Positions 1 to 320 of a stretch of 320 nucleotides of DNA are shown here, piece after piece; within the stretch, counting starts at the first letter, position 1, and each line of letters opens with the position of its first letter. The stretch is from Escherichia coli (lineage in GTDB: Bacteria > Pseudomonadota > Gammaproteobacteria > Enterobacterales > Enterobacteriaceae): NCBI RefSeq assembly GCF_003334765.1, contig NZ_QOWT01000143.1; one strand, 5' to 3'. A model generated the notes under the pieces. The model was not told the origin of the DNA. It saw nothing but the letters and a program-made list of their open reading frames with translations, and ran no database searches. The position numbers and the translations under genes are program-made.

Positions 1-320
1 TGCTGAACGTCAGCGAAAAACGAAACCGCTGTTGAAATCCCTGGAAAGCTGGTTGCGTGAAAAGATGAAGACCCTGTCGCGACACTCAGAGTTGGCGAAG
101 GCGTTCGCGTACGCACTTAACCAGTGGCCGGCACTGACGTACTATGCGAACGATGGCTGGGTGGAAATCGACAACGACATCGCTGAAAATGCCCTGCGGG
201 CGGTCAGTCTGGGTCGTAAAAACTTCCTGTTCTTCGGCTCTGACCATGGTGGTGAGCGGGGAGCGCTACTGTACAGCCTGATCGGGACGTGCAAACTGAA
301 TGACGTGGATCCAGAAAGCT
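1..320 (+). mobile_element. Internal portion of an IS66-family insertion sequence (transposase gene body; element ends not in window)
   Basis: Inferred from the transposase CDS call above. IS66-family elements typically carry tnpA, tnpB and tnpC in that order, with tnpC ending close to the right terminal inverted repeat. No terminal inverted repeat or target-site duplication is visible in the window, so the element boundaries cannot be placed. Confidence 0.75.
2..320 (+). CDS. tnpC: IS66-family transposase (ORF3/TnpC-like), internal partial CDS; 5' and 3' ends outside window
   Basis: Seen in sequence: frame 2 (+) is open for 106 codons from nt 2 to nt 319 with no stop, whereas + frame 1 hits TGA at nt 4-6 and + frame 3 hits TGA at nt 39-41. 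The translation contains ...KMKTLSRHSELAKAFAYALNQWPALTYYANDGWVEIDNDIAENALRAVSLGRKNFLFFGSDHGGERGALLYSLIGTCKLNDVDPES. From established knowledge (recalled, not searched): the EIDNxIAENALR / GRKNxxFxGSxxGGE / YSLIGTCxLNxVxPE motifs are the hallmark of the C-terminal region of IS66-family transposases. Codon usage (frequent CTG, GCG, CGT, GAA, AAA) fits a gamma-proteobacterial, enterobacterial-like host. The name 'tnpC' follows the common IS66 ORF3 naming convention and is not an exact-match identification of a specific named IS. Confidence 0.85.

Follow-up and report, generated by a model that had tools for sequence, protein, structure and literature searches.

Where does the insertion sequence represented by a short stretch of Escherichia coli DNA end, how much of it is present, and what lies past its boundary? 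We addressed these questions for a stretch of 320 nucleotides (the window), which a preliminary description had placed near the right end of an IS66-family element, with the boundary and any cargo just downstream. Comparison with sequenced genomes makes it very likely that the window represents the 3' part of ISEc8 tnpC, and that the copy matching it exactly is a non-functional 492-bp relic in an IS-rich mosaic next to pic/setBA in enteroaggregative E. coli (EAEC) such as 042 and 55989. Feature coordinates are collected in Table 1.

Table 1 Features of the window, of the reference ISEc8 copy and of the pic-adjacent locus (L001, E. coli 042).
Feature	Position	Strand	Remarks
Window	1..320	+	Internal ISEc8 segment; ISEc8 nt 1994-2313 of 2442
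tnpC ORF, frame 2	2..319	+	Codons 377-482 of the 512-aa TnpC DDE transposase
G for canonical A	176	+	Asn->Asp in E-I-D-N-[N>D]-I-A-E
Conserved block GRKNFLFFGSDHGGERGALLYSLIGTCKLNDVDPE	212..316	+	Translation
Intact ISEc8	L007 2008-4449		2442 bp; plasmid p14EC007b; blastn reference
ISEc43	L001 1970-5957; L017 3538-6078	Opposite to stub	
ISEc8 stub	L001 5958-6449	+	492 bp; ISEc8 nt 1951-2442, by blastn of L007 2008-4449
IS1414 fragment	L001 6450 to ~6727; +130 to ~+407 past window		~278 bp; last part of IS1414
pic	L001 6844-10962	-	Convergent with stub; stop at L001 6844 = +524
ORF fitting setB	L001 8662-8847	+	61 aa; inside pic, antisense
ORF fitting setA	L001 8851-9384	+	177 aa; inside pic, antisense

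The window encodes the C-terminal end of an IS66-family transposase

Translating the window left one plus-strand frame uninterrupted. Frame 2 is open over nt 2-319 (106 codons, no stops), and the two remaining plus-strand frames of the three-frame translation contain many stops. The frame 2 product, AERQRKTKPLL…GRKNFLFFGSDHGGERGALLYSLIGTCKLNDVDPES, matched the NCBIfam model NF033517 ('IS66 family transposase') at an E value of 2e-35 and 122.6 bits over profile positions 274-377 of 387; the score lies below the 180-bit whole-protein cut-off because the peptide is only a 106-aa fragment. The same peptide aligned to Pfam PF03050 (DDE_Tnp_IS66) over model positions 200-283 of 284 (E 1.9e-27) and to the first 14 of the 39 positions of PF13817 ('IS66 C-terminal element'). 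These profile matches are far above chance, and the window is the C-terminal end of an IS66-type transposase. The GRKN…PE block typical of IS66 transposases had been read into nt 180-320, and it does sit there, at nt 212-316 of a frame that stays open throughout; it runs from the last part of PF03050 into the first part of PF13817 (residues 92-105, nt 275-316). We rejected ORFs of 45-53 aa on the minus strand and in the other frames as shadows of the strongly supported plus-strand coding frame. Searching both strands of the window against Rfam at E≤1 gave no structured-RNA match.

ISEc8 is a catalogued IS66-family element with a tnpA-tnpB-tnpC layout; its terminal repeats (GTAAGCG…) are imperfect, and it duplicates 8 bp of its target. 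The window differs at a single nucleotide in 320 from ISEc8 as annotated by PGAP ('IS66-like element ISEc8 family transposase', for example on pO157), and thousands of ISEc8 copies share 99.7% identity with it. Of 5,426 complete E. coli genomes, 3,734 contain window-like sequence (median, 3 places per genome), as do 1,927 plasmids of PLSDB. The intact plasmid copy that we used as reference measures 2442 bp, in agreement with the length of the ISfinder entry. In intact ISEc8 (L007 and L012), TnpA and TnpB scored 97.7 and 120 bits against NCBIfam cut-offs of 74 and 50, and the 512-aa TnpC reached 460.3 bits against the curated cut-off of 180. The left and right inverted repeats (IRL and IRR) of the intact element agree at 13 of 13 positions at the tip and at 18 of 22 overall.

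Target-site duplications (TSDs) proved less constant than the element itself. The pO157 copy (L012) is flanked by one, with ACCAGTGA on either side, and was the only one of seven intact ISEc8 or ISEc8-like copies sampled to keep it. The other six (L007, L008, L011, L013, L014 and L015) lie between unrelated flanks without a TSD, which suggests frequent recombination or adjacent deletion, that is, frequent IS-mediated rearrangement around ISEc8.

The gene and the element end just past the window

We located the end of tnpC and of the element in the E. coli 042 locus (L001), where the window occupies positions 6001-6320. Nucleotide 320 is the first base of TnpC codon 483. After the window come 30 codons (YLRHVLGVIADWPVNRVSELLPWRIALPAE) and then a TAA at +90 to +92 (L001 6410-6412); a frame running on for hundreds of codons, which the preliminary description had named as the sign of a different architecture, is not what we found. 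Because the window comprises TnpC residues 377-482 of 512, its conserved block ends 31 residues before the C-terminus, consistent with the few tens of residues that had been proposed.

The right terminus of ISEc8 lies at +129. Four copies whose flanks are unrelated (L001, L005, L006 and L007) share their sequence through …GTACGCTTAC and diverge right after it, which is why we place the terminus there. Its tip, …CGCTTAC, corresponds to an imperfect terminal repeat that starts 5'-GTAAGCG. The supposed location of the window, close to where an IS66-family element has its right end, is thus supported. The expectation that stop and right inverted repeat would be met 100-250 bp beyond nt 320 was essentially right, in that the terminus falls inside this interval, but the stop lies about 10 bp nearer. 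Reading the letters alone had therefore placed the window rightly within a known IS architecture.

The exact match is a truncated ISEc8 stub

Among the 5,426 complete E. coli genomes, exactly 16 chromosomes match the window at 100% identity, those of EAEC 042 and 55989 among them. Plasmids in PLSDB yielded no exact match, the best being 99.7%. An 881-bp query reaching over both junctions of the 042 copy was found at 100% in the identical set of 16 accessions, and at least 80% of it in 329 genomes. Since all 16 exact matches among complete E. coli genomes and PLSDB carry this junction, we assign the window to the copy beside pic. We opened four of the loci (042, 55989, FORC_069 and H3) and found ISEc43 on the minus strand, an IS66 transposase pseudogene, a truncated transposase and pic; the arrangement in O104:H4 C227-11 matches theirs. 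In the opened loci, the pseudogene is annotated as 'IS66 family transposase, incomplete, missing N-terminus'.

This copy is a stub. Over the region present it is nearly identical to ISEc8 (491 of 492 nt, or 99.8%, shared with L007), and blastn with the intact element found no other ISEc8 sequence within ±6 kb. On its left, the left (IRL) tip of the inverted ISEc43 (…CTTTACGCTTAC, ending at L001 5957) meets ISEc8 nt 1951, 43 bp before the window. Only tnpC codons 364-512 are left of the three genes. The tnpA and tnpB genes found upstream are those of ISEc43, on the other strand, and the absence of ISEc8 tnpA and tnpB makes the stub a fragment of an IS66 member rather than a complete one. We read the identity of the stub, its coordinates, its truncation points and its neighbours directly from these comparisons. 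The stub shares with ISEc8 the position of the stop, the C-terminal 30 aa and the right terminal repeat; in contrast to ISEc8, it retains only nt 1951-2442 of 2442, lacks tnpA, tnpB, IRL and TSD, and has G at nt 176 (G176). Here the preliminary description went astray. It had envisaged a complete element reaching some 2.5 kb upstream to its left end, and had listed a truncated copy among the outcomes that would speak against it; the exact-match copy is just such a 3' remnant, cut by ISEc43. Of the two terminal inverted repeats that it called for, the right one is present and the left one is missing.

Could the window come from elsewhere? ISEc8 is very common in both genomes and plasmids, and a single transition could recur, so an intact and potentially active copy with G176 might exist in a genome outside the collections that we searched, with tnpA, tnpB and IRL upstream and perhaps a TSD. 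We regard this as unlikely. The truncated pic-adjacent junction accompanies 16 of 16 exact matches, G176 occurs in no intact or plasmid copy of the collections searched, and the exact 92-nt stretch spanning it was found in 0 of 100,044 species-representative genomes.

Nucleotide 176 is the sole mismatch between the window and the ISEc8 copies L005, L006 and L007. Every canonical ISEc8 copy examined has A at this position; only the 16 genomes of the 042/55989 type have G176, and the stub of O104:H4 carries A176 together with C262. The substitution replaces the Asn at TnpC residue 435 (window codon 59) with Asp in the conserved E-I-D-N-N-I-A-E stretch, shortly before window codon 62 (nt 185-187), which probably encodes the catalytic Glu. 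Such lineage-specific drift at nt 176 and 262 would be expected of a pseudogene. In practice, G176 is a handy lineage marker that distinguishes the 042/55989-type from the O104:H4-type pic locus.

An inverted ISEc43 cuts the stub

The element that cuts the stub resembles ISEc8 in belonging to the IS66 family, in its GTAAGCG tips and in its three-gene layout. ISEc43 is nevertheless distinct, with only ~67% DNA identity to ISEc8 over tnpC and the opposite orientation, and the window is not part of it. In 042, its tnpC is split by an insertion of ISEc45 (IS110 family), of which there is another copy (97.4% identity) at a distance of 2.1 kb. O104:H4 C227-11 lacks the ISEc45 insertion, and its ISEc43 is intact.

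Neither the insertion of ISEc8 that left the stub nor that of ISEc43 keeps a TSD. ISEc43 lies between TAATAGTC and CCATAGAG rather than between 8-bp repeats. For the stub, the 8 bp directly past the right tip are CGCTTATC. We assembled the left junction that an insertion here would predict, consisting of the upstream 159 bp of IS1414 (including CGCTTATC) followed by the ISEc8 IRL, and found no place covering both of its halves in any of the 5,426 complete E. coli genomes. With this left junction gone, the 8-bp duplication anticipated around the element finds no support at this copy.

From these junctions we infer the order of events. ISEc8 would first have inserted into IS1414 just 3' of pic, as suggested by its intact right end adjoining internal IS1414 sequence. 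Its first 1950 bp would later have been lost through deletion or recombination associated with the inverted ISEc43. Deletion or recombination is preferred over simple insertion because the predicted junction is absent and ISEc43 has no TSD. Being cut by ISEc43 would account for the disappearance of tnpA, tnpB, IRL and any target-site duplication.

IS1414 debris and the pic/setBA locus lie downstream

The genes past the junction had been expected to be interrupted or IS-associated, and this is what we observed: a fragment of the IS1414 transposase comes first, followed by pic/setBA. On the IS1414 side of the junction, 130 bp downstream of the window, the sequence is CGCTTATCCAACGG. The fragment matches an IS256-family HMM (E 2.8e-14), is 98.6-99.3% identical to annotated IS1414 and can be followed base by base to ~L001 6727. 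Full-length IS1414 carries astA (EAST1); the fragment beside the stub does not contain it. In E. coli FORC_044, an intact ISEc8 (L008 2234-6378) lies among IS1414/IS256-family fragments with an EAST1 (astA) ORF and adjoins the effector genes nleF, nleH and nleA, showing that ISEc8 and IS1414 debris co-occur at a second, unrelated virulence locus.

The stop of pic is reached ~115 bp past the end of the IS1414 fragment. About 15 nt after this stop, on the minus strand at L001 ~6805-6832, we noticed a hairpin (GGCTGCC-GGAA-GGCAGCC, then TTTCTC) that is, by eye, a plausible pic terminator; it went uncalled in our terminator scan because its T-tract is too short. The setB and setA genes of ShET1 are known to run antisense to pic (PMC7545054, section 19). 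Two antisense ORFs inside pic fit them (Table 1). Both ORFs are without an NCBIfam family and are unannotated in the RefSeq records; their identity rests on position, size and literature. With setB and setA on the complementary strand and pic reached within 0.4 kb of the stub, the flank corresponds to the published EAEC 042 locus (PAI pic/set, a relative of Shigella flexneri SHI-1/she).

The DNA downstream that had been singled out as potentially unusual is thus the well-studied pic/ShET1 toxin locus. The arrangement is ordinary and already published: Fig. 1 of PMC9387333 shows pic of strain 042 flanked by elements of the IS110 and IS66 families. To the published 042 locus, we add only base-level end points (ISEc43 to 5957, stub 5958-6449, IS1414 6450-~6727, pic stop at 6844) of what appears to be an inert IS relic, and the finding matters very little.

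Further IS66-type ends surround pic. Two 64-bp termini (GTAAGCGTAAAC…), at L001 1849-1912 and 11142-11205, are 90.6% alike and inverted, with their tips pointing inward, and bracket a 9.2-kb module of ISEc43, ISEc8 stub, IS1414 stub and pic. They may once have been the inner ends of a composite transposon, or they may be mere IS debris. It is improbable, in our estimation, that the stub and these other termini are fossils of a composite transposon that delivered pic/setBA. We put equally little weight on the accompanying proposal that such a transposon brought pic/setBA into EAEC and STEC O104:H4 chromosomes, the termini being its eroded inner ends. The geometry is suggestive, with the pic segment (L001 6450-11141) held between the ISEc8 tip at 6449 and an IS66-type tip at 11142, and the 64-bp inverted pair enclosing the whole module. 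However, the position of ISEc8 within the IS1414 fragment suggests a secondary insertion, into IS debris that was already there. Beside pic, the two inward termini also come from different IS66-family members, and no outer ends or duplications survive. Moreover, IS66-type ends are abundant (the one at 11142 is matched in 2,582 genomes), which makes chance juxtaposition in an IS graveyard likely. Were a composite transposon nonetheless responsible, it would explain in concrete terms how pic could move independently, as has long been suspected.

The stub is probably an inert passenger and a source of assembly breaks

Returning to the stub as a relic of ISEc8, we asked what such a remnant could still do. 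It lacks the N-terminal 363 residues of TnpC, two-thirds of the protein. Judging from the position of the DDE_Tnp_IS66 domain, both catalytic Asp residues would be absent. With the TnpC N-terminus, tnpA, tnpB and IRL all missing, we infer that the stub makes no transposase and is not transposable as a unit. Scanning L001 5900-6900 for promoter-like (σ70) sites and terminators returned none, no more than shuffles give. The stub still contains a mechanical 161-aa ORF (GTG at L001 5927, in-frame ATG at 5981; L001 5927-6412 corresponds to NC_017626.1 4923923-4924408), and a C-terminal fragment of TnpC may be expressed from it. That this ORF yields a 143-161-aa fragment modulating IS66-family transposition, or that the IRR is used in trans, seems highly improbable: the ORF is open, the IRR shows no mutation when compared with active copies and most stub strains have further ISEc8-like copies (2-20 places per record), but the promoter scan was empty, no correctly oriented partner IRL lies nearby and lineage-specific substitutions accumulate, one of them non-conservative and located in a conserved motif.

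An inactive stub of this kind would persist as a passenger and as a repeat able to seed homologous recombination and to break assemblies. An example of the latter came from the species-representative genomes. The ISEc8/IS1414 junction occurs in exactly 1 of these 100,044 genomes, on a contig attributed to 'MAG: Collinsella sp. isolate Map_57_008' (L016, JAIJJM010000215.1). The contig is 4799 bp long, is 99.8% identical to L001 6351-11141 and contains the ISEc8 stub tail, the IS1414 stub and pic, with both of its ends at IS66-type repeats. From its content, the contig is almost certainly of enterobacterial origin and was mis-binned into an actinobacterial MAG; it is a pic contig that ends in the stub.
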